Source: Escherichia coli | Lineage (GTDB): Bacteria > Pseudomonadota > Gammaproteobacteria > Enterobacterales > Enterobacteriaceae | NCBI RefSeq assembly: GCF_050320075.1 | Contig: NZ_CP190021.1 | Strand: one strand, 5' to 3' | DNA length: 64,000 bases | Position numbers and translations under genes: made by a program | In this document: positions 1 through 56,904 of the stretch, piece after piece | Layout of the letters: every line of letters begins with the position of its first letter | Numbering within the stretch: the first letter of the stretch is position 1 | The notes under the pieces: generated by a model | The model's database searches: none | Told to the model about the DNA's origin: nothing | The model's input: only the letters and a program-made list of their open reading frames with translations

Positions 1-98
1 TAACGAAGTGTGAACCAGAAACCACCCGCAAAGCAAGCCGTAAATCTGTAAAAACGCAGGAAACTGTCCTGTCTGCCCTGCTGGCGCAGACGGAGGAA

Positions 99-1952
99 GT
101 GAGCGTGCCGCTGGCCTCGCTGATTAAATCACCGCTGAATGTGCGCACGGTGCCGTATTCTGCGGAGTCCGTCAGCGAACTGGCGGAGTCCATTAAGGGC
201 GTCGGACTGCTGCAGAATCTGGTCGTGCATACCCTGCCTGGTGACCGTTACGGTGTCGCCGCAGGTGGTCGCCGACTGGCTGCACTCAACATGCTGGCAG
301 AGCGTGGCATCATTCCGGCTGACTGGCCTGTACGCGTGAAGGTTATTCCGCAGGAGCTGGCGACGGCTGCATCAATGACTGAAAACGGTCATCGTCGGGA
401 TATGCACCCTGCCGAACAGATTGCCGGATTCCGTGCGATGGCGCAGGAAGGCAAAACGCCTGCACAAATCGGTGATTTGCTGGGCTATTCGCCCCGCCAC
501 GTTCAGCGAATGCTGAAACTGGCAGACCTTGCGCCTGTCATCCTCGATGCGCTGGCAGAAGACCGCATCACCACAGAGCACTGTCAGGCGCTGGCGCTGG
601 AGAACGACACCGCGCGTCAGGTGCAGGTGTTTGAAGCCGCCTGCCAGTCGGGATGGGGCGGTAAACCGGAAGTACAGACCATTCGTCGTCTGGTGACCGA
701 AAGTGAAGTGGCGGTGGCAGGTAACAGTAAATTCCGCTTCGTGGGGGCTGATGCTTTCTCACCTGACGAACTGCGTACTGATTTGTTCAGCGATGACGGG
801 GACGGTTATGTCGACCGCGTGGCGCTCGATGCTGCCCTGCTGGAAAAACTCCAGGCTGTCGCTGAACACCTTCGGGAAGCCGAAGGCTGGGAATGGTGCG
901 CCGGACGCATGGAGCCTGTCGGTGAGTGCCGTGAGGATGCCGGAACATACCGCTGTCTGCCGGAGCCGGAAGCGGTGCTGACGGAGGCAGAAGAAGAACG
1001 CCTGAACGAACTGATGACGCGTTACGACGCGCTGGAAAACCAGTGTGAGGAATCCGACCTGCTGGAAGCAGAAATGAAGCTGATGCGCTGCATGGCGAAG
1101 GTCAGGGCGTGGACGCCGGAGATGCGTGCCGGAAGTGGCGTGGTGGTGTCCTGGCGTTATGGAAACGTATGTGTCCAGCGTGGTGTGCAGTTGCGCAGTG
1201 AAGATGACGCGACTGATGACGCTGACCGCACGGAACAGGTGCAGGAGAAAGCGTCAGTGGAGGAAATCAGTCTGCCGTTGCTGACGAAAATGTCTTCCGA
1301 ACGCACGCTGGCAGTCCAGGCAGCACTGATGCAGCAACCGGACAAATCTCTGGCACTGCTGGCATGGACGCTCTGCCTGAATGTGTTTGACAGCGGAGCG
1401 TACAGTAAACCAGCACAAATCAGCCTGGAATGTAAACATTATTCGCTGACCAGCGATGCGCCGTCAGGGAAGGAAGGTGCCGCATTCCTGGCGCTGATGG
1501 CAGAAAAAGCCCGTCTTGCGGCCCTGTTACCGGAGGGATGGTCACGGGACATGACGACGTTCCTGTCACTCAGTCAGGAGGTGCTGTTATCCCTGCTCAG
1601 TTTCTGCACCGCATGCAGCCTTAACGGTGTCCAGACCCGCGAGTGTGGTCGCACGTCACGCAGTCCGCTTGACTCACTGGAGAGCGCCATCGGTTTTCAC
1701 ATGCGCGACTGGTGGCAGCCGACGAAAGCAAACTTCTTCGGACACCTGAAAAAGCCGCAGATTATCGCAGCCCTGAATGATGCCGGACTGTCCGGTGCCG
1801 CACGGGACGCAGAGAAGATGAAGAAAGGCGATGCCGCTGAACATGCAGAGTTCCATATGAAAGACAACCGCTGGGTGCCTGGCTGGATGTGTTCACCACG
1901 TCCACAGACGGATGCCACTGAACGCGCCGATAACCTGGCTGATGCCGCCTGA
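99..1952 (+). CDS. ParB-like nuclease domain protein of the plasmid leading region; the frame is open to the window start, so the 5' end may lie outside the window
   Basis: 617-aa ORF with ParB N-terminal-like motif GGRRLAALNM and HTH-like segment; sits immediately upstream of psiB as in F/IncI leading regions; no stop codon upstream in frame back to position 3. Confidence 0.75.
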   Translation: MSVPLASLIKSPLNVRTVPYSAESVSELAESIKGVGLLQNLVVHTLPGDRYGVAAGGRRLAALNMLAERGIIPADWPVRVKVIPQELATAASMTENGHRRDMHPAEQIAGFRAMAQEGKTPAQIGDLLGYSPRHVQRMLKLADLAPVILDALAEDRITTEHCQALALENDTARQVQVFEAACQSGWGGKPEVQTIRRLVTESEVAVAGNSKFRFVGADAFSPDELRTDLFSDDGDGYVDRVALDAALLEKLQAVAEHLREAEGWEWCAGRMEPVGECREDAGTYRCLPEPEAVLTEAEEERLNELMTRYDALENQCEESDLLEAEMKLMRCMAKVRAWTPEMRAGSGVVVSWRYGNVCVQRGVQLRSEDDATDDADRTEQVQEKASVEEISLPLLTKMSSERTLAVQAALMQQPDKSLALLAWTLCLNVFDSGAYSKPAQISLECKHYSLTSDAPSGKEGAAFLALMAEKARLAALLPEGWSRDMTTFLSLSQEVLLSLLSFCTACSLNGVQTRECGRTSRSPLDSLESAIGFHMRDWWQPTKANFFGHLKKPQIIAALNDAGLSGAARDAEKMKKGDAAEHAEFHMKDNRWVPGWMCSPRPQTDATERADNLADAA

Positions 1953-2003
1953 TGAACAACCACACCGCCCCGCCGGAGACGGGGCGGCAGAGGGAGAAAT
2001 ACG

Positions 2004-2441
2004 ATGATGAATACCGAACTGACACTGAATGCCCTGCAGTCCATGAATGCCCAGGAATATGAAGAAATCCGTGCTGCGGGAAGCGATATGCGCCGTAATC
2101 TCACTCACGAGGTGATGCGTAAAGTGGACGCACCGGCTAACTGGATGATGAACGGAGAGTATGGCAGCGAGTTCGGGGGCTTTTTCCCCGTCCAGGTTCG
2201 TTTCACGCCAGCCCACGAACGTTTCCACCTGGCATTATGTTCGCCGGGAGACGTCTCTCAGCTCTGGATGCTGGTTCTGGTGAATGGTGGTGGACAGCCT
2301 TTCGCCGTCGTTCAGGTGCAACATATCTTCACGCCTGCCGCGATCAGTCACACGCTGGCGCTTGCCGCGACACTGGATGCGCAGGGATACAGTGTTAACG
2401 ACATCATCCATATCCTGATGGCAGAAGGAGGTCAGGCATGA
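2004..2441 (+). CDS. psiB: plasmid SOS inhibition protein PsiB
   Basis: 145-aa product closely matches recalled PsiB sequence ([40 protein letters not shown]); correct size and position. Confidence 0.9.
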
Positions 2442-3157
2442 GCGCACGTTCACGGGCACTGATCCCCCTCAGCGCAGAACAACAGGCCGCCATGCAGGCG
2501 GTGGCTGTCACAGAACAACGTCGTCGTCAGGGACGCACACTTTCAGCATGGCCTTATGCCACCGCTTTCTTTCGCTGCCTGAATGGCAGTCGCCGGATTT
2601 CGCTGACCGATCTCCGCTTTTTTGCCCCTGCGCTGACGAAGGAGGAATTTCATGGCAACCGTCTCCTGTGGCTGGCTGCCGTGGATAAACTGATTGAAAG
2701 TTTTGGGGAAGTCTGTGTTCTTCCCCTGCCATCCGATGCGGGGCACCGTCTGTTCCCGTCCGTGCCTTTTCGTGAAGGTGAGCGTCGTCGTCAGAAAACC
2801 ACGCTGACAGAGCAGAAATACAGCCGCCAGCGGGAACGTGAGGCAGAACGACGGGAACTGGAATACCAGACATGTTTTGCTCAGGCGCAGATTGACCTTG
2901 CGTTTCATACTCCCGCCACGGTCGGAAGCTGGTTGTCCCGCTGGTCTGGTGTTGTTGAGGAGCATGATCTGGAAACGATTTTCTGGGGGTGGTGCGGGCG
3001 TTTTCCATCACTGTCATCATTTGACCGGTTTTTCTGGCAGGAGGAACCACTCTGGCGGCTGATTTTTGAAGCCGGTGAGGCCGGTCGTGGTGCACCGGTA
3101 CAGGTACGTGCACTTGAGCAGTGGATGATCCCGAACAAGCTGGAGAACGTAATATGA
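2438..3157 (+). CDS. psiA: PsiA protein
   Basis: 239 aa, start overlaps psiB stop (coupled), typical psiB-psiA arrangement and size. Confidence 0.8.
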
Positions 3158-3750
3158 TGAAATCAGACGAAAAATACCAGGTTCCCGCGTGGATGCGACC
3201 TCTGTTGCCGTTGCTCTGCAACACCGGGGGGAACGATCCGGAAGAACTGCTGAATGATACAGAAACCACTGCCAGTGCGAATGTTGTCCGTTATGTACTG
3301 ATAGTTGCTGTGCGGTCGCAGGTTGATCTGCTGCAGCTTCTGTACAGGAAAGGGCTGTTGCGCACAGAGATACCAGGTGGCTTTTCACCGGAAGAAGCGC
3401 AGGCACTCCTGGATAATCTGGTGCGCAGCCATATCAGCAAGGCGCTGTCGGGCGAGCGAATGGCAGCCCGTGACAGAAATGCCGATCTGGCCTGGATTGG
3501 ACAGCAACTGGTCGATGACGCCTGGTTTGTCCGTGCCACACTGGAAGCGCATGGGATGAGCGTCGGAAATGAGAGTCCCCCTGCTCCGCCGGAGACAATG
3601 CCGGACATACAGACACGGGAACTGGTGATGTTGATCAAGCGACTGGCATCATCGCTGAAAGCGGTGAAACCGGACAGTTGTGTGGTGCGTGAAGCGCAGG
3701 ACTGGCTGCGCGACAGAAAACTTGTGGATATCACAGATATTCTCCGGTGA
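3154..3750 (+). CDS. hypothetical leading-region protein, translationally coupled to psiA
   Basis: ATGA overlap with psiA stop at 3154-3157; GGAG RBS upstream; 198 aa; no recognisable motif. Confidence 0.55.
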   Translation: MMKSDEKYQVPAWMRPLLPLLCNTGGNDPEELLNDTETTASANVVRYVLIVAVRSQVDLLQLLYRKGLLRTEIPGGFSPEEAQALLDNLVRSHISKALSGERMAARDRNADLAWIGQQLVDDAWFVRATLEAHGMSVGNESPPAPPETMPDIQTRELVMLIKRLASSLKAVKPDSCVVREAQDWLRDRKLVDITDILR

Positions 3751-4211
3751 ACCAGGCATGTATATTTTACGCAGGGACACGCCGATCATGATCGTTTCAT
3801 ATCAGGGGTGGTCTGGAGGTCATGCGGCGTGTCCTCTGCACTCGCCGGAATAAGGAAGTCGCCGGCGGCTCCGCTTTTACCCGGCCATGCGGGGCATGGC
3901 CTTGTGGGGTTTCAGCTCTGTGGCCTCAGCGTCGTGTGCGGGCTGTGCCGTGCCTCCATCTTAGCCGGGCTGGCAGGGATGCAAGGGTACGCTTCGCCGC
4001 TGCGGTCACCCGGTCCCTCCTTCCCGTCTGCCGTGATTTTCCGGTCGTTCGTCCGCTCAGGTTTCGCGGCCTCACCCTGCAACTCCCGTCAGCCGTGTGC
4101 GTCAGGCTGCGGCTTCCCTTGCGCCCCTGCATCCCCGCCTTATCGCCCGGCTTTTATGGAGGCACGGCACCGCCCGGTGTCGCAGAACATGTGACTATGG
4201 AGGATTCGGGA

Positions 4212-4712
4212 ATGTCTGTTGTTGCACCTGCTGTATACGTTGGAACCTGGCACAAATACAACTGTGGAAGCATCGCCGGACGCTGGTTTGACCTGACCAC
4301 GTTTGATGATGAGCGCGACTTTTTCGCCGCCTGCCGTGCTCTTCACCAGGATGAAGCCGATCCTGAACTGATGTTTCAGGATTATGAGGGATTCCCGGGG
4401 AATATGGCCTCTGAATGCCATATCAACTGGGCCTGGGTTGAAGGCTTCCGCCTGGCACGGGATGAAGGCTGCGAAGAGGCTTATCGTCTCTGGGTGGAGG
4501 ATACCGGTGAGACGGATTTTGACACCTTCCGCGATGCCTGGTGGGGCGAGGCTGACAGTGAGGAGGCTTTTGCGGTTGAGTTCGCCAGTGATACCGGCCT
4601 GCTGGCTGACGTGCCGGAGACGGTGGCGCTCTATTTTGACTATGAGGCGTATGCGCGGGATTTATTCCTGGACTCCTTCACCTTTATTGACGGTCATGTG
4701 TTCCGTCGGTGA
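4212..4712 (+). CDS. ardA: antirestriction protein ArdA (166 aa, acidic DNA-mimic family)
   Basis: Start at ATG 4212 after GGAGGA RBS; sequence [36 protein letters not shown] and acidic composition match ArdA; the longer track ORF 3822-4712 is an Arg/Pro-rich artefact of the GC-rich leader. Confidence 0.85.
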
Positions 4713-5078
4713 TTTACTCCCCCGCTCCGGCGGGGGTATGGCCTGCCAGGCCGCCGGAAAACCCTGGCAGGCTTACGCCTGCCTGAAATGCAGGAGGGCC
4801 GCGCCTGCGGCGCTGCCCTTCCTGCCCGTCATGGTGTGAGGCATTTTTCTGTTATGTCGTTTCTGTTGTTCTGATTTCCGGAGGCGGGGACACCTTCGGC
4901 TCCCGGCTGCCTGGCGGCATCCGGTCGTCAGGCCCGACTCCGACAGGCAGCTGCTGGCGCACCCGCCAGTCTCCGCCGAACCCGCTGGCGCGGTTTCGGG
5001 CTGCCGCTACGGTCCGATGTCTGAAAAACCAGGCTTGCAGCGACCGTTCCGGTCGCGCCGCCCCTGTCGCGCCGGAAA

Positions 5079-5395
5079 CGGCGCTCCCTGCACACCTGAC
5101 GGTGTGTAAGGCCACTGCGCCTGATGGCGCAGTCAACCCTTCCGCCGCCACCCCTGCGGCCTGTTTCCCGCTGTGGACTTTCCGGGGGCTGGAGTAACCA
5201 CATCCCGTTTCAGCAGTCCAGGGGAAGATATACCGTCCACAAAATTTTTAGCCATAAACCCGGCAAAAAATTTTGCGTCCGCCCCCGGACAGCTGCCCCG
5301 TGACGTGGTGACGGACGCCCCATCGGAAAGGTCCACTGCGGGGAGAAACCCCGAAGAAGTGGACGGCAGAAGGGGCTTTCGCCCCTCCGGGGAGC
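5079..5395 (-). promoter_or_regulatory. conserved structured non-coding element, copy 1 (candidate single-strand promoter / ssi-type element of the transferred strand)
   Basis: About 320 bp that align at roughly 80 percent identity with 7957-8275; frameshifting indels between copies argue against coding; lies directly upstream of ORF 5441. Confidence 0.5.
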
Positions 5396-5440
5396 AACCG
5401 GTCGGCCCGGCGACCTGATTCAGCAGAAGGAGACGTTTTC

Positions 5441-5875
5441 ATGACAGTCAGCAGCACGATTTCCGTTTTTTGCCGCGACGGGGTGTTCCGTACCGTTTAC
5501 TGCCACCTGCACGGGGAGCCGACCTGGAACGGTCGCATCCTGCATACCCACTATGCCACCGGTCAGCAGGCCGAAGCCCTGGTTGAACACGGTGATATCC
5601 GTTGCCTCGGTCCCCGTTGCGACAAACCCGCCGGGCATACGCTTCAGAACCCGGTGGACGGTGTGACGGCTTATTACGGACGTGACAGTGGTTTCCGGAT
5701 GGACAGTGAGGCGCGTGAGTACCGTTCTTTCAGGGAGGCTATTGCCACTGAAAGCACTGAAGAGGTGCGCTTCCATTATGTGTTCATCGACGGCTACTGG
5801 AAGGTGATGTACCGCACGCCGGAAGGCTGGAAGATGAAAGCGCTCGCGCTGGCACTGCGTCGCTGTCCGAAATGA
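5441..5875 (+). CDS. hypothetical protein (144 aa), first gene downstream of conserved element copy 1
   Basis: ORF with AGGAGA RBS (aagGAGAcgttttcATG); Cys/His-containing, no recognisable family. Confidence 0.6.
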   Translation: MTVSSTISVFCRDGVFRTVYCHLHGEPTWNGRILHTHYATGQQAEALVEHGDIRCLGPRCDKPAGHTLQNPVDGVTAYYGRDSGFRMDSEAREYRSFREAIATESTEEVRFHYVFIDGYWKVMYRTPEGWKMKALALALRRCPK

Positions 5876-5968
5876 AAAAAAGGCAGGGCGATAAACCCTG
5901 CCTCTCTCCGCCGGCGCTTCCCCGCCAGGAAGTCCGGCATCTCAATCACTATCTATGGAGATTATGCC

Positions 5969-6235
5969 ATGAGACCATCAATTATCTTCGCAACCGCCGA
6001 GTATGTAAAGCGTCTGCGTGAAGAGTGCCTGCGGGAGAATAAACCCCTGCACCGCCATACCCGCTTCAGACGTCAGGAGCTGGCACAGGATGAGATTAAC
6101 CCGGACGTCCTGGCGATGAGCGGCCATATCGCCAGACGCTGCAGTGAGCAGAAGCGGGTGCGTATCCCCGCTATGAAAGTCAGCGAATGGGGCCACCTGC
6201 TCCGCGCGCTTGAAATTGAGCGGGTCTGCCACTGA
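5969..6235 (+). CDS. hypothetical small basic protein (88 aa)
   Basis: ORF with GGAG RBS 9 nt upstream; Arg-rich; co-oriented directly after ORF 5441. Confidence 0.45.
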   Translation: MRPSIIFATAEYVKRLREECLRENKPLHRHTRFRRQELAQDEINPDVLAMSGHIARRCSEQKRVRIPAMKVSEWGHLLRALEIERVCH

Positions 6236-6299
6236 TTAACCCTTGCCGTCTGCCTGTGCAGGCGGCAGGATACGTTCAGACATCTCACCAGGAGGAACC

Positions 6300-7238
6300 G
6301 TGAGTCAGAAGAAAACCACCACGACGCCCACGCCGCATGATGCCGCGTTCCGGTCGTTCCTGGCGAATCCCGACGTCGCCAGAGATTTTCTGGAACTGCA
6401 TCTTCCGGCGGAGTACCGGCAGTTGTGCGACCTGTCCACGCTGAAGCTGGAACCCGCCACCTTTGTTGAGCCGGACCTGCATCAGTACGCCAGCGATATC
6501 CTCTGGAGTGTGAAAACCACCGGGGGTGAAGATGGCTATGTTTATACGCTCATCGAGCACCAGAGCACCGAAAATCTGTACATGCCTTTCCGCATGTTAC
6601 GTTACAGTGTGGCGGCGATGCAGAGACATCTGGAGCAGCACAAAACGTTGCCACTGGTGATTCCTGTACTGTTCTATCATGGTGAGCGCAGCCCGTACCC
6701 GTACAGCATGAACTGGCTGGACTGTTTTGAGAATCCGGCACTTGCGGCTAAAATATACACAAAGCCGTTTCCGCTGGTTGATATCACTGTCGTTGATGAC
6801 AATGAAATCATGAACCATCGCCGGATGGCCGCACTGACGCTGCTGATGAAGCATATCCGCCATCGTGACATGATGGAGCTGCTGGACAAACTCCCGCAGG
6901 TCATGGTGGAAATTTCAGACGAGCAGGTGCGTGTTCTGATTCATTACATCGTTAACGCAGGGGACTCTGTATCACCGGAATTTATGCGGGCGCTGGCTGA
7001 GCGTCTGCCGCAGCATGAGGATAAACTGATGACTATCGCAGAACGTCTTGAGCAAAAAGGTCGCCAGGAGGGCAGGATGGAAGGACGCATGGAAGGACGC
7101 ATGGAAGGACGCATGGAAGGAGCGCTTGAAAAAGCCCTGGCTATTGCGTGCCAGCTTCAGAAAATGGGGATGACGCCGGAGCAGATTAAGCAGGCTACCG
7201 GACTTTCCGATGACGAACTGAAGAAAATCACTCACTGA
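6300..7238 (+). CDS. Rpn-family (YhgA-like, PD-(D/E)XK) recombination-promoting nuclease / putative transposase
   Basis: GTG start after AGGAGG RBS; N-terminal HDAAFRSFL..ARDFL and core motifs typical of Rpn/YhgA proteins; C-terminal tail domain after a GRME tandem repeat. Confidence 0.8.
   Translation: MSQKKTTTTPTPHDAAFRSFLANPDVARDFLELHLPAEYRQLCDLSTLKLEPATFVEPDLHQYASDILWSVKTTGGEDGYVYTLIEHQSTENLYMPFRMLRYSVAAMQRHLEQHKTLPLVIPVLFYHGERSPYPYSMNWLDCFENPALAAKIYTKPFPLVDITVVDDNEIMNHRRMAALTLLMKHIRHRDMMELLDKLPQVMVEISDEQVRVLIHYIVNAGDSVSPEFMRALAERLPQHEDKLMTIAERLEQKGRQEGRMEGRMEGRMEGRMEGALEKALAIACQLQKMGMTPEQIKQATGLSDDELKKITH
7071..7118 (+). repeat. in-frame 12-bp tandem repeat x4 (ggacgcatggaa) encoding (GRME)4 in the Rpn linker
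   Basis: Three perfect units plus one imperfect unit read directly from sequence. Confidence 0.9.
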
Positions 7239-7249
7239 GTAAACATCAC

Positions 7250-7276
7250 AGCCCGGCAAAATGCCGGGCTTTTTTG
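7250..7276 (+). terminator. Rho-independent terminator after the Rpn gene
   Basis: Hairpin agcccggc-aaaat-gccgggct followed by a T-run. Confidence 0.7.
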
Positions 7277-7299
7277 TCAGCAGGAGCAGAGCAAATAGC

Positions 7300-7458
7300 A
7301 TGACGATTGCAGAACGTCTTATTCAAAAAGGCGCACTTGAAGTGGCGCGGGAAATAGCCTGCCGGCTGCGGGATATGGGCTGGACGCCGGAACGGATTCA
7401 GGAGGCAACCGGACTTTCCGGTGAAGAACTGAAAAAGCTGTTTCCTGATGAGCAGTAG
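7300..7458 (+). CDS. free-standing Rpn C-terminal tail-like small protein (52 aa)
   Basis: MTIAERLIQKG..GWTPERIQEATGLSGEELKKL parallels the Rpn tail MTIAERLEQKG..GMTPEQIKQATGLSDDELKKI; GGAG RBS upstream. Confidence 0.6.
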   Translation: MTIAERLIQKGALEVAREIACRLRDMGWTPERIQEATGLSGEELKKLFPDEQ

Positions 7459-7488
7459 CCTGGCATTCAGCCAGGCTGTGAATCACGC

Positions 7489-7740
7489 TCACACATCCTC
7501 TGCCGTTTCCCCCAGTTCATTTTCCAGTCGCCTGATGATATCTGCCTTACGCATCCCCTGCATGTGAGGCAGCAGGTCACGGACTGAAAGTGCCTGGGTG
7601 GTCCTCCAGACGGTGACGTCCACCTGTTCCGCATTTTCCCAGGCGTGCCATGTTCTCTGCGTCACGCCAAATTCTCTGGCCGCTTTTTCGCGTGACCAGA
7701 GCATGCTTTTTCGCCAGATTCGCAGTTCCCAGCCGGTCAT
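7489..7740 (-). CDS. small HTH DNA-binding regulator (83 aa)
   Basis: HTH-like segment REKAAREFGVTQRTWHAWE; promoter region carries twin palindromes. Confidence 0.6.
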   Translation of the reverse strand: MTGWELRIWRKSMLWSREKAAREFGVTQRTWHAWENAEQVDVTVWRTTQALSVRDLLPHMQGMRKADIIRRLENELGETAEDV

Positions 7741-7754
7741 AAAACACCTTTGAA

Positions 7755-7775
7755 AAAGTGAAAAAACTTCACTTT
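7755..7775. promoter_or_regulatory. palindromic operator-like site AAAGTGAA-N5-TTCACTTT (copy 1)
   Basis: Perfect 8-5-8 inverted repeat just upstream of the HTH gene start. Confidence 0.6.
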
Positions 7776-7821
7776 ATTTTATCATCACAATTGCCAAATC
7801 AGCGCGATAAATAAGTGTAAA

Positions 7822-7842
7822 AAAGTGAAGAAATTTCACTTT
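7822..7842. promoter_or_regulatory. palindromic operator-like site AAAGTGAA-N5-TTCACTTT (copy 2)
   Basis: Second identical 8-5-8 inverted repeat 67 bp from copy 1. Confidence 0.6.
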
Positions 7843-7956
7843 TTTTGCTTGTAAATGTCGTGCGGTTTTCTCTGTTTTCACCTGTGCGGGAGTGGTGTGC
7901 CAGTGACCACCACATGCCATTGTTGTGCCGTCGTTTTTCTTCAGTCGCGCCGTATG

Positions 7957-8275
7957 CGGCGCTCCCTGCACACCTTACGGTGTGTAAGGCCACTGCGCCT
8001 GATGGCGCAGCTGTCTCTGCCTGTCTGCCGCCGCACTGCGGCCTGTTCTCCGCAGACGGACTTTCCGGGGGTACATACATGACCACATCCCGTTTCAGTC
8101 GTCCAGGGGGGAGATGTACCAGCCACAAAACTTTTTGCCGCAGGCGTCAAAAACTTTTGCGTCTGCCCCCGGACAACTGCCCCGTGACGTGGTGAGCGTC
8201 CCCCGTCGGAAAGGTCCACTGCGGGGAAATCCCCGAAGACCCGGACGGCAGAAGGAGCTTCGCTCCTCCGGGAAA
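7957..8275 (-). promoter_or_regulatory. conserved structured non-coding element, copy 2
   Basis: Homologous to 5079-5395; directly upstream of ORF 8317. Confidence 0.5.
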
Positions 8276-8316
8276 TGACCTGGCTGTCCCGGCAGTCGTG
8301 ACGATGAGGAGACAAT

Positions 8317-9168
8317 GTGATGAATCAGACTTTACCCACTGCTGACCTGAATACTGCCGGCACGACAGATGTTATTCCGTCTGTGGCTATCGACCGCATC
8401 ATCGCGCAGCGTAACGAAGGTATTGCACTGTTCATGCAGGCGATGGAATGCCTGGCGACAGCGCGCAAGATTCTGCTCGATGCGTCAGGTGATATTTTTC
8501 TTTACGGGTTTGAAGACTGCGTGACTGATTCCGTTCGTCGCATAGATAAACCGGAAGAAGCGAAAAGGAATATCACCCGTCTTGCCGACCGGAAAATCTG
8601 GGACCGCCTGATGACAGATACGGGCATGTACACCTTCATGAGTTCATGCCAGCGTGATGAGTGGAACAGCCAGCTGATGAGCGACACCTGTCCTGAAATC
8701 ACCCTGGACAATGTACTGGCAACATTCCGCCATCTGAATGCCTGCAAGATGCAGACATTTGAACAGGGACTGATTGATGTCTACCGGAAATTGTCATGGG
8801 ATTACAGAACCAATAATCCCTGCCGTCTGGGTAAGAAAATCATTATTGAAAACCTGCTGTACCGCTGGAGTAACGGGCGTGTGACGCTGGACTGCAGCGG
8901 ACGGGAGGCACTGGATGACCTGGTACGTCCGTTTTATCTGCTGGAGGGGCGCAACGTTCCTGACTTCAGGAACAGTATCGGGGCGCAGTATGGTGAATTT
9001 CTCGGGAACGGCGACAATGTCGGTAAGCTGTTAGAAGGGGAATATTTTACGGTGCGTGGCTACCAGAAAGGGACCGTACACATTGTCTTTAAGCGTTCTG
9101 ACCTTGTTGAAAAACTGAATGATATTATTGCACGGCATTATCCAGGTGCATTGCCGCCACGAGTCTGA
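8317..9168 (+). CDS. hypothetical protein (283 aa), last + strand gene of the leading region before oriT
   Basis: ORF with AGGAGA RBS; adjacent GTG and ATG candidate starts at 8317 and 8320; no confidently recognised domain. Confidence 0.6.
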   Translation: MMNQTLPTADLNTAGTTDVIPSVAIDRIIAQRNEGIALFMQAMECLATARKILLDASGDIFLYGFEDCVTDSVRRIDKPEEAKRNITRLADRKIWDRLMTDTGMYTFMSSCQRDEWNSQLMSDTCPEITLDNVLATFRHLNACKMQTFEQGLIDVYRKLSWDYRTNNPCRLGKKIIIENLLYRWSNGRVTLDCSGREALDDLVRPFYLLEGRNVPDFRNSIGAQYGEFLGNGDNVGKLLEGEYFTVRGYQKGTVHIVFKRSDLVEKLNDIIARHYPGALPPRV

Positions 9169-9180
9169 TTAAACAGAAAA

Positions 9181-9210
9181 GCCCTGGTATTTATGCCGGG
9201 GCTTTTTTTT
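9181..9210 (+). terminator. Rho-independent terminator after ORF 8317
   Basis: Hairpin gccctgg-tatttat-gccggggc followed by T8. Confidence 0.7.
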
Positions 9211-9253
9211 CTGTAATCATCATAATCTCAGAACACGATGTGACATTGTCACA

Positions 9254-9595
9254 TCAATTGTTGTTCATATCGATGCCATCTTTCCTGCCTGAATCTGTCT
9301 TTTTAGGTGCTGTTTTAGAGGAAGAACGGCGGGATGGTTTTTTCGATTCTGCTTCCCGAATAATGTCACGAAGTGCCTTCTCTCCTACTTCATACCCTGC
9401 ATTTTTGAGCGTGTCACGAACATCTGCCAGTGTATAACCCTTTGTCCTTACCAGGACAATAATGTCATCACGAATGGCATCAAGAAAATCACGCAATGTT
9501 TTCCGTTGAGCGGTGAGATCTGGCAATTCCGATAAAGCAGCTTTTGCCAGCTGGATGTCATCATCTGAGTAAAATTTTTTAGAAGCCATTGGCAC
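9254..9595 (-). CDS. hypothetical protein with Lys/Arg/Ser-rich basic C-terminal tail (113 aa), possible DNA-binding protein, directly beside oriT
   Basis: ORF on the opposite strand to the other leading-region genes; basic tail ESKKPSRRSSSKTAPKKTDSGRK. Confidence 0.5.
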   Translation of the reverse strand: MPMASKKFYSDDDIQLAKAALSELPDLTAQRKTLRDFLDAIRDDIIVLVRTKGYTLADVRDTLKNAGYEVGEKALRDIIREAESKKPSRRSSSKTAPKKTDSGRKDGIDMNNN

Positions 9596-9647
9596 TTTCT
9601 CTCCGTTTCATGTTGAAGTCTGATTTTATCATCAAAAACTGACTCCT

Positions 9648-9776
9648 GGCAGGGCTGCGCCCTGCCTCTGCCGTCTGCATAAGACTATGATGCACAAAAA
9701 TAACAGGCTATAATGGCCTGAAAAACGGGACAGGATGTGCAATTGTATAACCGCGCACGCGCGATTATACAATTGC
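9648..9776. promoter_or_regulatory. oriT: origin of transfer (oriT) with predicted nick site on the - strand
   Basis: Inverted repeat ggcagggc-tgc-gccctgcc (9648-9666); 12-bp inverted-repeat arms gcaattgtataa/ttatacaattgc (9739-9776); minus-strand core CATCCTG/TCCCG resembling IncP/IncI nick regions, placing the nick near 9730/9731. Confidence 0.7.
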
Positions 9777-9821
9777 CTCCTGGTCAGGGCTTCGCCCCGA
9801 CACCCCAGTAAGGAGCTGACC

Positions 9822-10154
9822 GTGAGTGATAAACGTCAAAGAAGTGGTAGTGAAAGACGGCAAAAGACGATCCTGAGAGCGGTCCGGTTCTCACCGGATG
9901 AGGATGAAACTATCTGTAAGAATGCTGAAGATTCCGGACTTACTGTATCTGCTTACATCCGAAATGCAGCACTGAATAAGCGAATTAACTCCCGTACAGA
10001 TGATGCTTTTCTGAAGGAGTTAATGAGACTGGGAAGGATGCAGAAGCATCTGTTTGTTCAGGGAAAAAGAACCGGTGACAAGGAATACGCAGAAGTGCTT
10101 GTTGCCATAACCGAACTTACAAATACATTGCGTAAACAGTTAATGGAAGGTTGA
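9822..10154 (+). CDS. nikA: relaxosome accessory protein NikA (ribbon-helix-helix, 110 aa)
   Basis: GTG start after AAGGAG RBS, next to oriT and upstream of the relaxase; expected size. Confidence 0.8.
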   Translation: MSDKRQRSGSERRQKTILRAVRFSPDEDETICKNAEDSGLTVSAYIRNAALNKRINSRTDDAFLKELMRLGRMQKHLFVQGKRTGDKEYAEVLVAITELTNTLRKQLMEG

Positions 10155-10164
10155 GGATTCTCCG

Positions 10165-12864
10165 GTGAATGCAGTCATTCCGAAAAAGAGAAGGGACGGC
10201 AAGTCTTCGTTCGAAGACCTGGTATCCTACGTCTCTGTCCGGGATGACATGACCGATGAGGAACTGGATTTATCTTCTTCTTCGCAGGCTGAACAACCGC
10301 ACCGAAGCCGTTTCAGTCGCCTTGTTGATTATGCGACACGTCTTCGAAATGAGTCATTCGTGGCGCTGGTTGATGTCATGAAGGACGGCTGCGAATGGGT
10401 CAACTTTTATGGTGTCACCTGCTTTCATAACTGTACTTCTCTTGAAACTGCCGCTGCAGATATGGAGTACATTGCCCGGCAGGCACACTATGCAAAAGAT
10501 GACACTGACCCTGTTTTTCACTACATCCTTTCCTGGCAGTCACATGAAAGCCCGCGTCCGGAACAGATTTATGACAGTGTACGTCATACGCTGAAATCAC
10601 TCGGCCTTGCCGACCATCAGTATGTCTCTGCCGTGCATACTGATACAGATAATCTGCACGTCCATGTGGCTGTTAACCGGGTACACCCTGAAACGGGTTA
10701 TCTGAACCGGTTATCATGGAGTCAGGAAAAACTCAGTCGTGCCTGCCGTGAGCTTGAACTGAAGCATGGTTTTGCTCCGGATAACGGTTGCTGGGTCCAT
10801 GCGCCGGGAAATCGTATCGTTCGCAAAACTGCCGTTGAACGTGATCGCCAGAACGCCTGGACACGCGGAAAAAAACAAACTTTTCGTGAGTATGTTGCGC
10901 AGACAGCGGTCGCTGGTTTACGCAGTGAACCTGTACATGACTGGTTATCCCTGCATCGTCGTCTTGCGGAAGATGGTCTGTACCTGTCTCAGATGGACGG
11001 AAAATTTCTGGTGATGGATGGCTGGGATCGCAACAGGGAAGGTGTACAGCTTGACTCGTTTGGTCCCTCCTGGTGTGCAGAAAAACTCATGAAAAAAATG
11101 GGTGACTACACGCCAGTGCCAAAAGACATTTTCAGCCAGGTGGAAGCACCAGGACGCTATAATCCGGACTTCATTGCAGCTGATGTTCGCCCGGAAAAAA
11201 TCGCTGAAACAGAAAGTCTGCAGCAGTATGCCTGTCGTCATCTTGGAGAACGTCTGCCGGAAATGGCACGGGAAGGACGGCTGGAAAACTGCCTGGCTAT
11301 TCACCGCACACTGGCTGAAGCGGGATTATGGATGCGTGTTCAGCATGGTCACCTGGTTATCTGTGACGGTTATGATCATAACCAGACTCCCGTTCGTGCT
11401 GACAGCGTATGGTCACTGCTGACGCTCGACAATGTGAATCAACTCGATGGTGGCTGGCAGCCTGTACCAACAGATATTTTCCGCCAGGTTACGCCAACAG
11501 AACGCTTCCGTGGTCGTCGTATGGAGAGCTGTCCTGCGACCGATAAAGAATGGCACCGTATGCGTACAGGTACGGGGCCGCAGGGGGCTATCAAACGCGA
11601 ACTGTTTTCTGACAAAGAAAGTCTGTGGGGATACAGCATCAGCCATTGTAGCCCTCAGATTGAAGAAATGATCACACAGGGTGAGTTTACCTGGCAGCGT
11701 TGTCATGAGTTGTTTGCACAACAGGGACTGATGCTACAGAAACAACATCACGGGCTTGTTGTCGTTGATGCTTTTAATCATGAGCAAACGCCGGTGAAAG
11801 CCAGCAGCATTCATCCTGATCTGACACTGGGGCGTGCGGAGCCACAGGCCGGACCTTTTGTGAGTGCTCCAGCAGATTTGTTTGACAGGGTGCAACCTGA
11901 AAATCGCTATAACCCGGAGCTGGCTGTCAGTGACAGGTACGGGGTCAGCAGTAAACGTGACCCAATGCTGCGCCGGCAGCGACGTGAAGCCAGGGCTGAG
12001 GCCCGTGCTGACCTGCGTGCCCGCTATCTGGCATGGCGTGAACAATGGCGTAAACCGGATCTGCGTTATGGGGAACGTTGTCGGGAAATTCATCAGGCAT
12101 GCCGTCTGCGGAAGTCACACATTCGTGCGCAGTACGATGATCCGGCATTACGTAAGCTGCATTATCACATTGCAGAAGTTCAGCGAATGCAGGCATTGAT
12201 CAGGCTGAAAGAAGACATCAGGGATGAGCGACAGAAACTTATTGCTGACGGGAAATGGTATCCACCCTCTTACCGTCAGTGGGTCGAAATTCAGGCTGCT
12301 CAGGGAGACAGGGCTGCTGTATCGCAGTTGAGAGGCTGGGATTATCGCGATCGCCGTAAAGACAAGTCACGCACAACGACGACAGACCGCTGTGTCGTGC
12401 TTTGTGAACCGGGCGGAACGCCGGTATACGGTAATACCGGTGATCTCGAGGCCCGTCTGCAGAAGAACGGGAGTGTTCGTTTCCGTGACCGTCGGACGGG
12501 AGAGTTTGTCTGTACGGATTATGGTGACAGAGTTGTTTTCCGTAATCACCATGACCGCAATGCGCTGGCAGATAAACTGGATTTGATTGCACCGGTATTA
12601 TTCGGGCGTGATCCACGCATGGGGTTTGAACCAGAAGGAAACGACAAACAATTTAACCAGGTCTTTGCTGAAATGGTTGCCTGGCATAATGTGACAGGCC
12701 GTACCGGTCACGAAGACTACAGGATTACGCGACCGGACGTGGATCATCACCGTGAAGGAAGTGAACGCTACTACCGCGATTATATCGCGGCGAACAGCAA
12801 CGATGACGCATCACTGCCTCCGCCGGAGCAGGATAAACGCTGGGAACCGCCTTCTCCAGGTTAA
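10165..12864 (+). CDS. nikB: conjugative relaxase NikB (899 aa)
   Basis: Relaxase histidine triad HTDTDNLHVHVAVN; size and position match the IncI1 relaxase. Confidence 0.9.
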   Translation: MNAVIPKKRRDGKSSFEDLVSYVSVRDDMTDEELDLSSSSQAEQPHRSRFSRLVDYATRLRNESFVALVDVMKDGCEWVNFYGVTCFHNCTSLETAAADMEYIARQAHYAKDDTDPVFHYILSWQSHESPRPEQIYDSVRHTLKSLGLADHQYVSAVHTDTDNLHVHVAVNRVHPETGYLNRLSWSQEKLSRACRELELKHGFAPDNGCWVHAPGNRIVRKTAVERDRQNAWTRGKKQTFREYVAQTAVAGLRSEPVHDWLSLHRRLAEDGLYLSQMDGKFLVMDGWDRNREGVQLDSFGPSWCAEKLMKKMGDYTPVPKDIFSQVEAPGRYNPDFIAADVRPEKIAETESLQQYACRHLGERLPEMAREGRLENCLAIHRTLAEAGLWMRVQHGHLVICDGYDHNQTPVRADSVWSLLTLDNVNQLDGGWQPVPTDIFRQVTPTERFRGRRMESCPATDKEWHRMRTGTGPQGAIKRELFSDKESLWGYSISHCSPQIEEMITQGEFTWQRCHELFAQQGLMLQKQHHGLVVVDAFNHEQTPVKASSIHPDLTLGRAEPQAGPFVSAPADLFDRVQPENRYNPELAVSDRYGVSSKRDPMLRRQRREARAEARADLRARYLAWREQWRKPDLRYGERCREIHQACRLRKSHIRAQYDDPALRKLHYHIAEVQRMQALIRLKEDIRDERQKLIADGKWYPPSYRQWVEIQAAQGDRAAVSQLRGWDYRDRRKDKSRTTTTDRCVVLCEPGGTPVYGNTGDLEARLQKNGSVRFRDRRTGEFVCTDYGDRVVFRNHHDRNALADKLDLIAPVLFGRDPRMGFEPEGNDKQFNQVFAEMVAWHNVTGRTGHEDYRITRPDVDHHREGSERYYRDYIAANSNDDASLPPPEQDKRWEPPSPG

Positions 12865-55229: not shown

Positions 55230-56904
55230 TGTTGCCTCCTGACGGGAAAGTCGGGGTAATGATGATTACAAGCGTGCTGCGTTCATTTTTCCCGGTTTGT
55301 GAACCACCAAATAATGGATTTGCTGGCGTAAACGTACCGGCTTTACTTGTCGTCGTATTGTTCTGATCGAAACCAGTAACGACAAGTGATTGCCCTTCTT
55401 TCAGATTGACCTTCTGGCTCAGTGAACGCAGTTTGGTATACGGCATTTCGATGTAACTGTTTCCGTCTTTTGACGTAAAGCTACGGATTGTTGGGGGATC
55501 TGACAGATTAAAATTCATCTGCAACTGGAGATTGCCCGTTTTCTGAATTAAAGGCAGCAGGGTCATATTGAATCCGGTGGTGATCATGCCCGGCGTTAAT
55601 GTTGTTGTTGCTCCTACATCCGTAGTCGTTGTTGTTGCTGACTGGGCGACGTAAACCGTCTGATCTGCCATCTGGATAGGTACCGGCGTCAGGTTTGTGA
55701 CAGTGCTTTCTTGTGAAGTCACAACACTGACATCGCCCTGTTCACTCAGCGCTTTAATCAGAAGACTGGAACCGCTGAATTTGGCGGCATTCCCTGTTGC
55801 CGTATCCAGAATTGATACGCCTGCAGATGTAGCGCCTGTAAAATCTCCGCTTGCATTGTTCAACGTTGCTCCGGCGGAATGTAGCGATTTATAAACAAGG
55901 TTCCAGTCCAGACCGAACTGTTCGTTTCTGGTATTGCTGACGCTCAGAACCTGTACGTTCAGGGCTACCTGGCGGTTCATAATACTGTTTTGTTCGTCCA
56001 CATATCGTGCGACGGCTTCCTGGACAGCTGGAGTATCAGTGACAGTCAGCGTTGAGCTCGATGCAGATAACCAGTAACGGCCTTTTTCTGGTGTCAGCAT
56101 TGCTTCAATAGTTTTCCGGATGTCTTCATACAGATCGTATTCCTGACCAACGGTTGTGCTCTGAGAGGACGTTGCATCACCGGATGCTGAGTTATCCTGG
56201 CCTCCTGTTGCCCCCATTGTGCTTGTTGAGCCAGAGCTGACACTGGAACTGCTGCTGGTTTTGGTGTTCAGCATATGAAGTGGATACGTTCTGGTTTCAG
56301 TCAGATAGAATACAATCCGACCATTATCCATGCGCCAGTACAGACCACTCCGGCTGGCCATCAGATCCAGAAGACCATTGATATCTCCCTGCCACATGAG
56401 GTTATTCAGCGTTAATGGCTGAGTGGAGGTAGTCATTGTTGTGCTGCCCAGGCTGCTTAACGGTAGACGCCCATTTTCATCTGGTGCTGGTAGTGTTCCT
56501 GTCATCTGGCGGGTAGCGCCTCCTTCAAGAGTTGAATTGGCTGCGTCAGGCGTGATGATCACAGGGATGCCGCATACGGCAGTAATACGTTGCCCCAGTT
56601 CCTGCAGAGTGATCTCTCCTTTTCTTGCCTGCGTGATGTAGCAGGCCGGAGCTGTTTGTTTTTTCTCTCTTGATACCTGAGCGACCGGAACAGGGTTTAT
56701 CCATTGATTATCGAGCCAGGTAAGAGCCTGCGATTTACGGGCCGAAAGGGCTGATACCTTTTCCCGTGCATGTGCTGAGTCTTCCTGTGCTTTTTTCTGC
56801 ATTTTGTTGATTTCGCTGAAAGTACATCCGGAGATGGAAAGAGCGACGGCGATCATGCAGGGGAGCACCGCCAGCTTCATTGAACGCTGGTGTGATTTTT
56901 TCAT
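55222..56904 (-). CDS. pilN: PilN secretin-family outer-membrane lipoprotein
   Basis: Lipoprotein signal SISGCT; secretin-like C-terminal domain; 560 aa. Confidence 0.85.
   Translation of the reverse strand: MKKSHQRSMKLAVLPCMIAVALSISGCTFSEINKMQKKAQEDSAHAREKVSALSARKSQALTWLDNQWINPVPVAQVSREKKQTAPACYITQARKGEITLQELGQRITAVCGIPVIITPDAANSTLEGGATRQMTGTLPAPDENGRLPLSSLGSTTMTTSTQPLTLNNLMWQGDINGLLDLMASRSGLYWRMDNGRIVFYLTETRTYPLHMLNTKTSSSSSVSSGSTSTMGATGGQDNSASGDATSSQSTTVGQEYDLYEDIRKTIEAMLTPEKGRYWLSASSSTLTVTDTPAVQEAVARYVDEQNSIMNRQVALNVQVLSVSNTRNEQFGLDWNLVYKSLHSAGATLNNASGDFTGATSAGVSILDTATGNAAKFSGSSLLIKALSEQGDVSVVTSQESTVTNLTPVPIQMADQTVYVAQSATTTTTDVGATTTLTPGMITTGFNMTLLPLIQKTGNLQLQMNFNLSDPPTIRSFTSKDGNSYIEMPYTKLRSLSQKVNLKEGQSLVVTGFDQNNTTTSKAGTFTPANPLFGGSQTGKNERSTLVIIITPTFPSGGNNG

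Follow-up and report, generated by a model that had tools for sequence, protein, structure and literature searches.

The window analysed here, a stretch of 64,000 nucleotides, is, judging from its sequence, the leading region of an IncI1-type conjugative plasmid. At its left it holds ardA, encoding a protein of 166 amino acids, whose ATG at 4212 was assigned by reading and agrees with the PGAP coding sequence; a ribosome-binding sequence, GGAGGA at 4199–4204, stands 7 nt before it. Non-coding DNA lies on both sides: 461 bp upstream (3751–4211), back to the stop codon of orf209, and 728 bp downstream (4713–5440), up to a gene that begins at 5441. The first-pass annotation had given the upstream length correctly, as about 460 bp, but set the downstream one too short, at 370 bp. 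It ended at 5078, which falls 15 nt inside the element called ssi2 below, leaving that element almost wholly outside.

A sequence resembling an oriT nick region, as judged by the nick consensus attributed to Furuya and Komano (1991), lies on the minus strand at 9726–9739, and nikA and nikB sit to its right. This placement would make the minus strand the transferred strand (T-strand) and everything to the left of the match the leading region. Here, the minus strand would be the one that enters the recipient, and would be the template for all leading-region genes. The features are as follows.

up to 3750: orf209, ending with its stop codon; the upstream neighbour of ardA
3751–3851, no strand assigned: IncI1-specific spacer after orf209, with hairpin arms 3771–3784 and 3825–3839, outside the conserved promoter element
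3852–3878, minus: conserved terminal motif of the class 2 element, T-strand GCGGAGC-N-GCGAC[A/T]TCCTT
3883–3901, minus: small accessory hairpin, GGCCATGC-GGG-GCATGGCC, from folding
3939–4176, minus: class 2 ssDNA-promoter hairpin of 238 nt, from homology, fold and covariation
3958–3963, minus: −10-like hexamer TAAGAT, in the non-template arm
3979–3984, minus: −35-like hexamer TTGCAT, in the non-template arm, read from sequence and fold
4164–4211, plus: predicted ardA leader
4212–4712, plus: ardA
4719–4736, no strand assigned: 7-bp hairpin just past the ardA stop codon, specific to the ardA context, from folding
4741–4817, plus: conserved block A, with the invariant hairpin GGCAGGC-loop-GCCTGCC (4766–4783) and a second hairpin around GCCGCGCCTGCGGCGC
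4889–5063, minus: conserved block B, 175 nt, a structured stretch that extends class 1 promoters upstream
5064–5389, minus: ColIb-P9 ssi2, a class 1, Frpo-type ssDNA promoter, 99.7% identical to AJ238399:4353–4678
5441–5875: orf144, which would be driven by ssi2
7942–8270, minus: ColIb-P9 ssi1, class 1, 98.8% identical, with direct repeats D3, D4, D6, D7 and D9
9726–9739, minus: oriT nick-region-like sequence, CACATCCTG/TCCCG

The G+C content is 0.655–0.66 over 3801–4200 and 0.63–0.715 over 4701–5100, with 0.53–0.58 inside ardA. Hairpin density was scored by folding the DNA as single strands and comparing it with dinucleotide shuffles. This gave z scores of −5.2 (plus strand) and −5.5 (minus strand) for 3751–4212 and of −10.1 and −9.3 for 4713–5440, with no shuffle folding equally well in either stretch. 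The GC-rich, hairpin-dense, non-coding flanks that the first-pass annotation described are therefore real (66–71% G+C, z from −5 to −10, no credible gene), and the inverted repeats it cited are indeed present, cccccgc/gcggggg at 4719–4725 and 4730–4736 and gcctgccagg/cctggcaggc at 4741–4750 and 4763–4772.

Open reading frames can, of course, be found mechanically in such DNA. These include an in-frame N-terminal extension of ardA (3822–4712), a plus-strand frame of 128 amino acids (3808–4194) and a minus-strand frame (4852–5151). The last, in the form 4852–5136, is listed as the hypothetical protein WP_021013251.1 in pFORC44_1; it is absent from the annotations of pESBL-EA11 (99.9% identical there) and ColIb-P9, its paralogous copy is annotated on the opposite strand, and Ala, Arg, Gly and Pro make up 48% of it. 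A Pfam search with eight open reading frames returned no match at E ≤ 0.1, and homologues of the upstream flank differ by insertions and deletions of 1, 2, 4 and 5 nt across the hairpin and terminal motif. An Rfam 15 covariance-model scan of 1–12000 returned no match near the flanks at E ≤ 1, and a scan of 3500–5600 on both strands for sigma-70 duplex promoters found no site with 16–18 spacing. An intrinsic terminator scan of the same interval and strands left the hairpins at 3771–3839, 4719–4736, 4766–4783 and 4790–4825 all unflagged, its two terminator-like matches lying within ardA and within the apex of ssi2. Thus, the flanks are explained neither by a small gene or an Rfam family nor by a sigma-70 duplex promoter or an intrinsic terminator.

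What does explain the upstream flank is its membership in the class 2 family of ssDNA promoters. The element is 99.1% identical over 462 nt to pESBL-EA11 63856–64317 (the flank downstream of ardA is 99.9% identical to the same plasmid), 93.5% identical over 355 nt to F 56395–56747, which lies upstream of yfgB and is ssp2, and 84% identical to candidate 4 of the Frpo′ set (Samuel et al., Nature 2024, PMC11541004). The comparison with ColIb-P9 that the first-pass annotation had proposed gave 99.2% identity in the ardA-flanking region, with homology beginning at 3802, beside a TnpB gene, so that the spacer hairpin is truncated there. The spacer is found in close IncI1 relatives only, and the homology with F has its left edge at 3852.

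The core of the element is an inverted repeat whose 32-nt arms, 3939–3970 and 4145–4176, are 88% complementary. This repeat, larger than those cited, was absent from the examples in the first-pass annotation. The minus strand of 3939–4176 folds at −75.8 kcal/mol (z −6.4) and the plus strand at −66.6 kcal/mol, which makes the minus-strand fold more stable by 9.2 kcal/mol.

Class 2 promoters are described in pESBL (Wen et al., NAR 2025, PMC12672017), six leading-region operons of which show inductions of up to about 500-fold. The class 2 name was given there to the hairpins of ardA and klcA, and 5′ RACE was used to map start sites. For the ardA element, transcription is reported to begin within the hairpin base in early transconjugants, and activity to cease on conversion to duplex. 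The upstream element resembles the class 2 promoters in sequence, in standing directly upstream of an anti-restriction gene on the same strand, and in forming a long hairpin with candidate promoter hexamers in its stem. Class 1, with the named members Frpo/ssiD of F (Masai and Arai, 1997), Frpo1 and Frpo2 (Couturier et al., 2023) and ssi1–3 of ColIb-P9 (Bates et al., 1999), works by the same principle, a T-strand hairpin that rebuilds a promoter active only on single-stranded DNA. However, a BLAST comparison of 3751–4211 and 4713–5063 with class 1 sequences gave no match except the tail of block B, and the class 2 hairpin folds without the A+T-rich stem that class 1 has at its apex. In F, moreover, the class 2 element blocks complementary-strand synthesis rather than priming it. 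The ardA-flanking elements are, then, already known, as described ssDNA promoters and as ColIb-P9 ssi2. The present plasmid, typed IncI-gamma/K1, carries another copy of the class 2 promoter, and nothing substantive sets this copy apart from those described.

A BLAST search of plasmids for distant relatives gave, among the matches listed, only sequences at least 88% identical and hence no diverged homologues, and a pattern scan of species-representative genomes was used instead. About a third of its matches were chance ones in unrelated GC-rich genomes, which were removed by requiring the partner arm, and 32 homologues from about 20 genera were obtained. Since part of the 3′ arm, with TA...T, is prescribed by the search pattern, the invariance of those columns is circular.

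These thirty-two diverged homologues retain the upstream hairpin with compensatory changes. Paired cells make up 97.6% of the alignment when the true partners are used and 33–46% when the partners are slid. Both sides have changed in 16 of 43 pairs, against 2–6 after sliding, many of the compensatory counts going back to a single divergence of two clades. The true partners score 0.268 for covariation and slid partners no higher than 0.064, and none of 500 shuffles reached the true value. The pair tables further hold about 76 G·T cells and 6 A·C cells, an excess from which it follows that the structure has been selected on the minus strand. The flanks are thus constrained, as a conservation check suggested by the first-pass annotation brought out, and its other check, for a missed small gene, turned up none to account for them; both outcomes favour function.

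A candidate promoter geometry can be read from the fold. The −35-like hexamer TTGCAT is base-paired in the stem. It occurs in 24 of the 32 homologues, two more have the close variants TTGCAG and TTGTAT, and three have TTTTCT in place of TTG at this position. The −10-like hexamer TAAGAT has its middle three bases in a 3 × 3 internal loop, opposite a template-arm counterpart (4152–4157) that reads TTTTAT, and its centre is unpaired in 31 of the 32. Between the hexamers are 15 nt on the non-template arm, which is outside the sigma-70 norm, and 19 nt on the template arm, an asymmetry kept in 30 of the 32. It is possible that the published class 2 figures already show the asymmetry, the unpaired −10 centre and the terminal motif.

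From these observations we infer the exact promoter boxes, the start and the logic of the spacers. When single-stranded, 3939–4176 of the minus strand would snap back into the 238-nt hairpin, whose stem would rebuild a sigma-70-type promoter. Here, the 3′ arm would be the non-template strand, with TTGCAT, 15 nt and TAAGAT in that order, and the 5′ arm would be the template. RNA polymerase would start near A4164, a position deduced from that of the −10 hexamer, leave the hairpin at its base and run into ardA, so that ArdA would be made before the complementary strand exists. Two features would confine the promoter to single-stranded DNA. One is that the −10 hexamer would have its three central bases, the −11A position among them, permanently unpaired. 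The other is that, with spacers of 15 and 19 nt, neither strand of a duplex would offer a usable spacing of 16–18 bp, while the folded form would average 17. The asymmetry may be a geometric switch that restricts class 2 promoters to the folded form.

By homology with ssp2 of F, which holds up complementary-strand synthesis as a roadblock until UvrD clears it (Fraikin et al., bioRxiv 2026), the hairpin probably has a second effect. A complementary strand growing from the left would stall until the hairpin is melted by UvrD, and ardA and the elements beyond would stay single-stranded for longer. Transcription from single-stranded DNA, the mapped start and the roadblock are, for the upstream element, carried over from papers on elements 99% and 93.5% identical to it.

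Downstream of ardA the situation is different in kind: 4713–5063 holds no promoter hairpin, but conserved accessory blocks that precede ssi2. Thus, where the first-pass annotation proposed single-strand initiation or promoter sites on both sides, the proposal fits the upstream flank directly, as a class 2 element, and the downstream stretch only indirectly, through what it precedes. In order, ardA is followed by the ardA-specific hairpin, block A, a T-rich spacer, block B and ssi2; homology with the klcA paralogue begins only at 4741. The minus strand of ssi2 folds at −104.6 kcal/mol (z −9.3) and the plus strand at −92.9 kcal/mol, a difference of 11.7 kcal/mol in favour of the minus strand, and its folded hairpin (5136–5374) has a 12-bp A/T stem at the apex. 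Its −35 and −10 boxes were sought by eye, with no convincing assignment. By its identity with the ColIb-P9 element, ssi2 would be the hairpin promoter of the next operon, and its transcripts could also prime complementary-strand synthesis, as those of ssp1/Frpo do in vivo in F (Fraikin et al., bioRxiv 2026).

The accessory parts are conserved in their own right. Block A is 75–86% identical in 18 other loci, F among them, always in the same orientation and 0.5–3 kb downstream of a class 2 hairpin, and its primary sequence is conserved beyond pairing alone. Block B is 97% identical to a copy upstream of ssi3; in F, both Frpo copies have its last 40 nt conserved on their upstream side, and distant copies of the block occur in Siccibacter and Rahnella. 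The terminal motif (AAGGAAGTCGCC..GGCTCCGC on the plus strand) lies 40–95 nt 3′ of the hairpin in most of 61 family members, two loose regular expressions matching 58 and 50 of them. Beside it, the small accessory hairpin is replaced by other self-complementary sequences in the Klebsiella grimontii, Entomohabitans and Erwinia dacicola copies. Two readings of the motif were dropped. A ribosome-binding site with start codon was rejected because of a 5-nt indel and of an ATG that is not conserved, and a nick-like site for a relaxase because the same motif occurs in F-type plasmids with a different relaxase.

One may propose, tentatively and at well below even chances, that block A, block B and the terminal motif are cis-acting parts of a single-stranded establishment programme, each with its own job, and that the spacer asymmetry is the switch of class 2 promoters. 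The three parts could act as stop or insulator signals for transcription from a single-stranded template, on which ordinary terminators might fail, or could load replication or repair proteins of the host.

The same three parts might, of course, do nothing, and simply hitchhike in repeated cassettes spread by recombination between ssDNA-promoter repeats. Both flanks are common to the ardA and klcA cassettes, related plasmids have lost or gained a 9.7-kb segment containing ardA by recombination between Frpo repeats, and the near identity of the two block B copies in one plasmid fits gene conversion. However, passengers would not be expected to keep what these have kept: the core of block A is nearly invariant although flanks have diverged to 75% identity, the terminal motif survives across subfamilies with different hairpin lengths, and the distant copies of block B retain long invariant runs and some compensatory pairs. 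Hitchhiking is, on this evidence, unlikely.

Very unlikely is the view that the structures act as RNA or as duplex DNA, with single-stranded DNA uninvolved: upstream as a leader or attenuator of ardA, downstream as terminators or as stem-loops that stabilise RNA. Hairpins do lie directly past the stop codons of orf209 and ardA, as do the short G+C-rich stem-loops of Rho-independent terminators and REP-like sequences. Two alternative pairings of block A compete for GGCAGG in the manner of an attenuator, the longer of which needs G·U in the plus (RNA) sense in most homologues. The ardA-flank hairpins, unlike terminators or REP sequences, have no T-run after them on the coding strand and are confined to plasmid leading regions; the terminator scan flagged none of them on either strand, and no Rfam family covers them. 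In the large hairpin, G·T exceeds A·C on the minus strand, whereas a plus-sense RNA structure would give the reverse. A start at the hairpin base, as predicted, would exclude the hairpin from the ardA mRNA. Finally, leading-region genes are reported to be switched on from single-stranded DNA and off upon conversion to duplex.

A third view holds that the hairpin clusters are PriA-type (phiX174-type) primosome sites or primase-type ssi, which load DnaB and DnaG without RNA polymerase. The first-pass annotation had raised a primosome assembly site, and the suggestion is a natural one. The phiX174-type (PriA/n′) and G4-type primase signals are likewise hairpin-rich signals on the incoming single strand, found historically with the same assay as the ssi elements. 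The transferred strand carries many small stable hairpins in the ardA flanks, and both blocks, like the terminal motif, are conserved without an assigned role. AAGCGG is a hexamer common to n′ sites, and in the window it is included in the T-strand terminal motif. However, this lead was dropped: only 27 of the 61 family members contain AAGCGG, and the window shows no enrichment, with 32 copies against an expected 30. There is no consensus for PriA sites that could be tested, and no paper in the open literature ties the hexamer to primosomes. The ssi elements were, according to a paper citing Nomura (1991), originally defined as priming signals. In F, nevertheless, priming and early conversion at class 1 elements are abolished by rifampicin and therefore depend on RNA polymerase, and the class 2 homologue delays synthesis. 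The F elements homologous to the ardA flanks thus differ from PriA sites in that in vivo data point to RNA polymerase. A primosome site finds no support here and is highly improbable.

Scarcely credible, finally, is the idea that the flanks encode missed small proteins (the ardA extension from 3822, the 128-amino-acid frame, the minus-strand frame from 4852), for although such frames exist and one is annotated, its composition and inconsistent annotation, the empty Pfam search, the frame-breaking indels and the ribosome-binding sequence that ardA has of its own all argue against it.

Thus, it is very probable that ssDNA promoters flank ardA, like the elements of pESBL, F and ColIb-P9. Sequence identity, fold, covariation and strand asymmetry were all directly observed here. 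The present copy adds nothing new to the picture of ssDNA promoters, although the feature proved recognisable from raw sequence. The comparison across genera, in turn, gives the class 2 structure independent evolutionary support, in its compensatory changes and strand-specific G·T pairs, where earlier support came mainly from folding prediction and 5′ RACE in one plasmid. Promoters of this kind allow genes for anti-restriction and SOS inhibition to be switched on within minutes of entry, before the incoming DNA is double-stranded, and such early protective expression helps to explain the ease with which resistance plasmids move between strains.

The unusually GC-rich, hairpin-dense flanks that the first-pass annotation saw around ardA are real. 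GC content peaks at 0.66 upstream of the gene and at 0.715 downstream, with values of 0.53-0.58 inside it. As single-stranded DNA, both flanks fold better than every one of their dinucleotide shuffles, on either strand:

3751-4212, upstream of ardA: z -5.2 (plus strand), z -5.5 (minus strand)
4713-5440, downstream of ardA: z -10.1 (plus strand), z -9.3 (minus strand)

The gap upstream is, as had been claimed, some 460 bp long (461 bp, 3751-4211), with ardA starting at 4212 behind a GGAGGA at 4199-4204. The gap downstream is 728 bp long and runs to 5440, making the earlier end at 5078 (about 370 bp) arbitrary. Both inverted repeats singled out earlier are present where they were placed; the main upstream feature is a far larger inverted repeat, with 32-nt arms at 3939-3970 and 4145-4176.

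The setting is a conjugative leading region. By megablast, 3600-5500 matches pFORC44_1 (an E. coli plasmid with an IncI-gamma/K1 replicon, MOBP relaxase and MPF_I) at 100%, and also thousands of related IncI and IncF plasmids. The plus strand carries, in order, genes for a ParB-like protein, psiB, psiA, orf209, ardA, orf144, an Rpn-family protein and DUF4942, then oriT and nikA-nikB. On the minus strand, at 9739-9726, stands CACATCCTG|TCCCG, which matches the IncI1/IncP nick-region consensus (Furuya and Komano, 1991). This makes the minus strand the transferred (T) strand: it goes in 5'-first, from about 9730 leftwards, and is the template of every leading-region gene, an arrangement described in general by Samuel et al. 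(2024).

By identity to described elements, the upstream stretch is a class 2 single-strand promoter, one of the possibilities that the first-pass annotation had raised. Its relatives are:

3751-4212: pESBL-EA11, upstream of ardA, 99.1%, gapless
3802 onwards: ColIb-P9, 99.2%
3852-4204: paralogous element before klcA in IncI1 plasmids, 93-95%
3852-4204: F plasmid, upstream of yfgB, 93.5%
3851-4192: Frpo' 4, from an insect-gut metagenome, 84%

Frpo' 4 is a candidate single-strand promoter in Samuel et al. (2024). In pESBL, six leading-region operons are strongly induced; the hairpins before ardA and klcA were there named class 2, and their start sites mapped by 5' RACE (Wen et al., 2025). The F copy, ssp2, drives yfgB, and the end of its stem arrests complementary-strand synthesis until resolved by UvrD (Fraikin et al., 2026). 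In ColIb-P9 (locus L096, 32482-33693), a TnpB gene replaces orf209 and homology begins at 3802, cutting a hairpin at 3771-3839; that hairpin is thus dispensable for the ardA induction known from this plasmid.

Near-identical copies of class 2 elements from E. coli and Klebsiella plasmids also occur in assemblies labelled Streptomyces morookaense and in Oscillibacter, Oscillospiraceae, Collinsella and Lachnospiraceae MAGs (L004, L005, L007, L009, L022, L050, L054). These are probably contamination or mis-binned plasmid contigs.

Comparison across genomes supports the hairpin independently. A scan of species-representative genomes with a 3'-arm pattern gave 91 stretches; removal of chance matches left 32 long-hairpin homologues (mean identity 76% in alignment) from Escherichia, Klebsiella, Yersinia, Salmonella arizonae, Pantoea, Erwinia, Cedecea, Mixta, Lelliottia and others. 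In the 43-pair consensus hairpin, part of one arm of which was fixed by the search pattern, pairing is kept in 97.6% of cells, against 33-46% with slid partners. Two-sided changes occur in 16 of the 43 pairs, against 2-6 with slid partners, many of these compensatory counts reflecting a single two-clade split. The covariation score (0.268) compares with at most 0.064 for slid partners, and was reached by none of 500 shuffles. About 76 cells hold G.T but only six hold A.C, the would-be G.T of the opposite strand, and the minus-strand fold in the window is 9.2 kcal/mol better than the plus. This, in turn, means that the structure is selected on the transferred strand.

How might such a hairpin work as a promoter? 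For transcription towards ardA, the T-strand hairpin would have its 5' arm (4065-4176) as the template and its 3' arm as the non-template strand. The non-template arm carries TTGCAT (3984-3979), 15 nt, and TAAGAT (3963-3958). The -35-like TTGCAT lies within a perfect 13-bp duplex. Bases 1, 5 and 6 of the -10-like TAAGAT are paired, and bases 2-4 lie opposite TTT in a 3x3 internal loop; these middle three are unpaired in 31 of the 32 homologues. Between the two hexamers (window 3958-3984 and 4127-4157), 30 of the 32 have a spacer of 15 nt on the non-template arm but 19 nt on the template arm (20 and 15 in the two exceptions), and the mean of both arms is always 17-17.5. Thus, neither duplex strand offers a 16-18-bp spacer, and a promoter scan of 3500-5600 found no sigma-70 site. 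The folded form, with its average spacing of 17 and pre-opened -10 region, would account for activity confined to single-stranded DNA. The predicted start, placed from the -10 position, lies near A4164 and would give a 48-nt leader. This assignment of boxes and start is tentative; it is weakened by the short spacer of 15 nt and by the TTTTCT that three homologues carry in place of the -35 hexamer.

A terminal motif, GCGGAGC-N2-7-GCGAC[A/T]TCCTT (minus strand, 3852-3878), stands 40-95 nt 3' of the class 2 hairpin in most of 61 family members, among them a subfamily with short hairpins in Pantoea and Erwinia.

Downstream of ardA, the stretch is built of four pieces, a short hairpin, block A, a T-rich junction and block B, with ssi elements beyond them:

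4719-4736: 7-bp hairpin following the stop codon of ardA and confined to that gene's setting
4826-4888: T-rich junction
5064-5389: ColIb-P9 ssi2, 99.7% identical, directly after block B
7942-8270: ColIb-P9 ssi1, 98.8% identical

On the minus strand the ssi2 fold reaches -104.6 kcal/mol (z -9.3), compared with -92.9 kcal/mol for the plus strand. Block A (4741-4817) recurs at 75-86% identity in 18 other enterobacterial plasmid loci, F included; its orientation never varies, and each time a class 2 hairpin stands 0.5-3 kb upstream of it. Its core, GCCTGTCAGCCCGCG.GAAAACCC.GGCAGGC-loop-GCCTGCCGG, is nearly invariant; the conserved hairpin GGCAGGC-loop-GCCTGCC (4766-4783) competes with the 10-nt repeat quoted earlier. 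In a scan of 3500-5600, no T-run followed the small downstream hairpins, and on neither strand does block A form a canonical terminator. Block B (4889-5063) is 97% identical between its copies upstream of ssi2 and ssi3, although the two ssi cores share only about 87%. The final 40 nt of the block are kept upstream of both F Frpo copies, just beyond the cloned ssiD fragment, and Siccibacter and Rahnella hold distant copies of the block.

The ardA cassette (3852-5389) and the klcA cassette (L094, 5306-7448) have both flanks in common: each begins with a class 2 hairpin and has block A, block B and a class 1 (Frpo-type) ssi on its downstream side. These shared sequences suggest duplication, or that promoter repeats recombined and exchanged cargo; a 9.7-kb segment gained or lost between Frpo repeats in a published case (PMC3817090) fits this.

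Two repeats lie further along. An AT-rich block at 7742-7846, with direct and inverted 26-38-nt repeats, separates a minus-strand helix-turn-helix gene (7489-7740) from ssi1; it may serve this gene as promoter or operator. In the Rpn-family nuclease gene (6243-7238), tandem 12-nt repeats at 7057-7121 encode (MEGR)n close to the C-terminus.

The flanks might instead be a PriA-type primosome assembly site. The T-strand terminal motif does contain AAGCGG (3871-3876), a candidate hexamer for such sites. However, this hexamer appears in only 27 of the 61 family members, is not enriched within the window, and has no link to primosomes in the open literature; we know of no consensus for PriA sites usable as a test. 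Further, early conversion from the class 1 elements of F is sensitive to rifampicin, and its class 2 element holds synthesis back. The priming that occurs therefore depends on RNA polymerase and falls to ssi2, not to the coordinates first proposed. The reading as single-strand initiation or promoter sites is right for the upstream stretch. As for a missed small gene, none was found: mechanical ORFs span both gaps (an in-frame ardA extension from 3822; a minus-strand ORF, 4852-5136, annotated by PGAP in pFORC44_1 as hypothetical protein WP_021013251.1 and overlapping block B and ssi2), but no ORF crossing the flanks matches Pfam, and indels of 1, 2, 4 and 5 nt separate homologues across the region, breaking frame. 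The WP_021013251.1 ORF, 48% Ala, Arg, Gly and Pro, is annotated in neither pESBL-EA11 (99.9% identical) nor ColIb-P9, and is probably spurious.

Every major element has a prior description. The ssi sites date from 1999 and the class 2 candidate from 2024; class 2 was named, and its start sites mapped, in 2025, and the roadblock role followed in 2026. The accessible literature yielded no description of block A, block B, the terminal motif or the conserved 15/19 spacer asymmetry. These amount to no new kind of system; they are modest leads.
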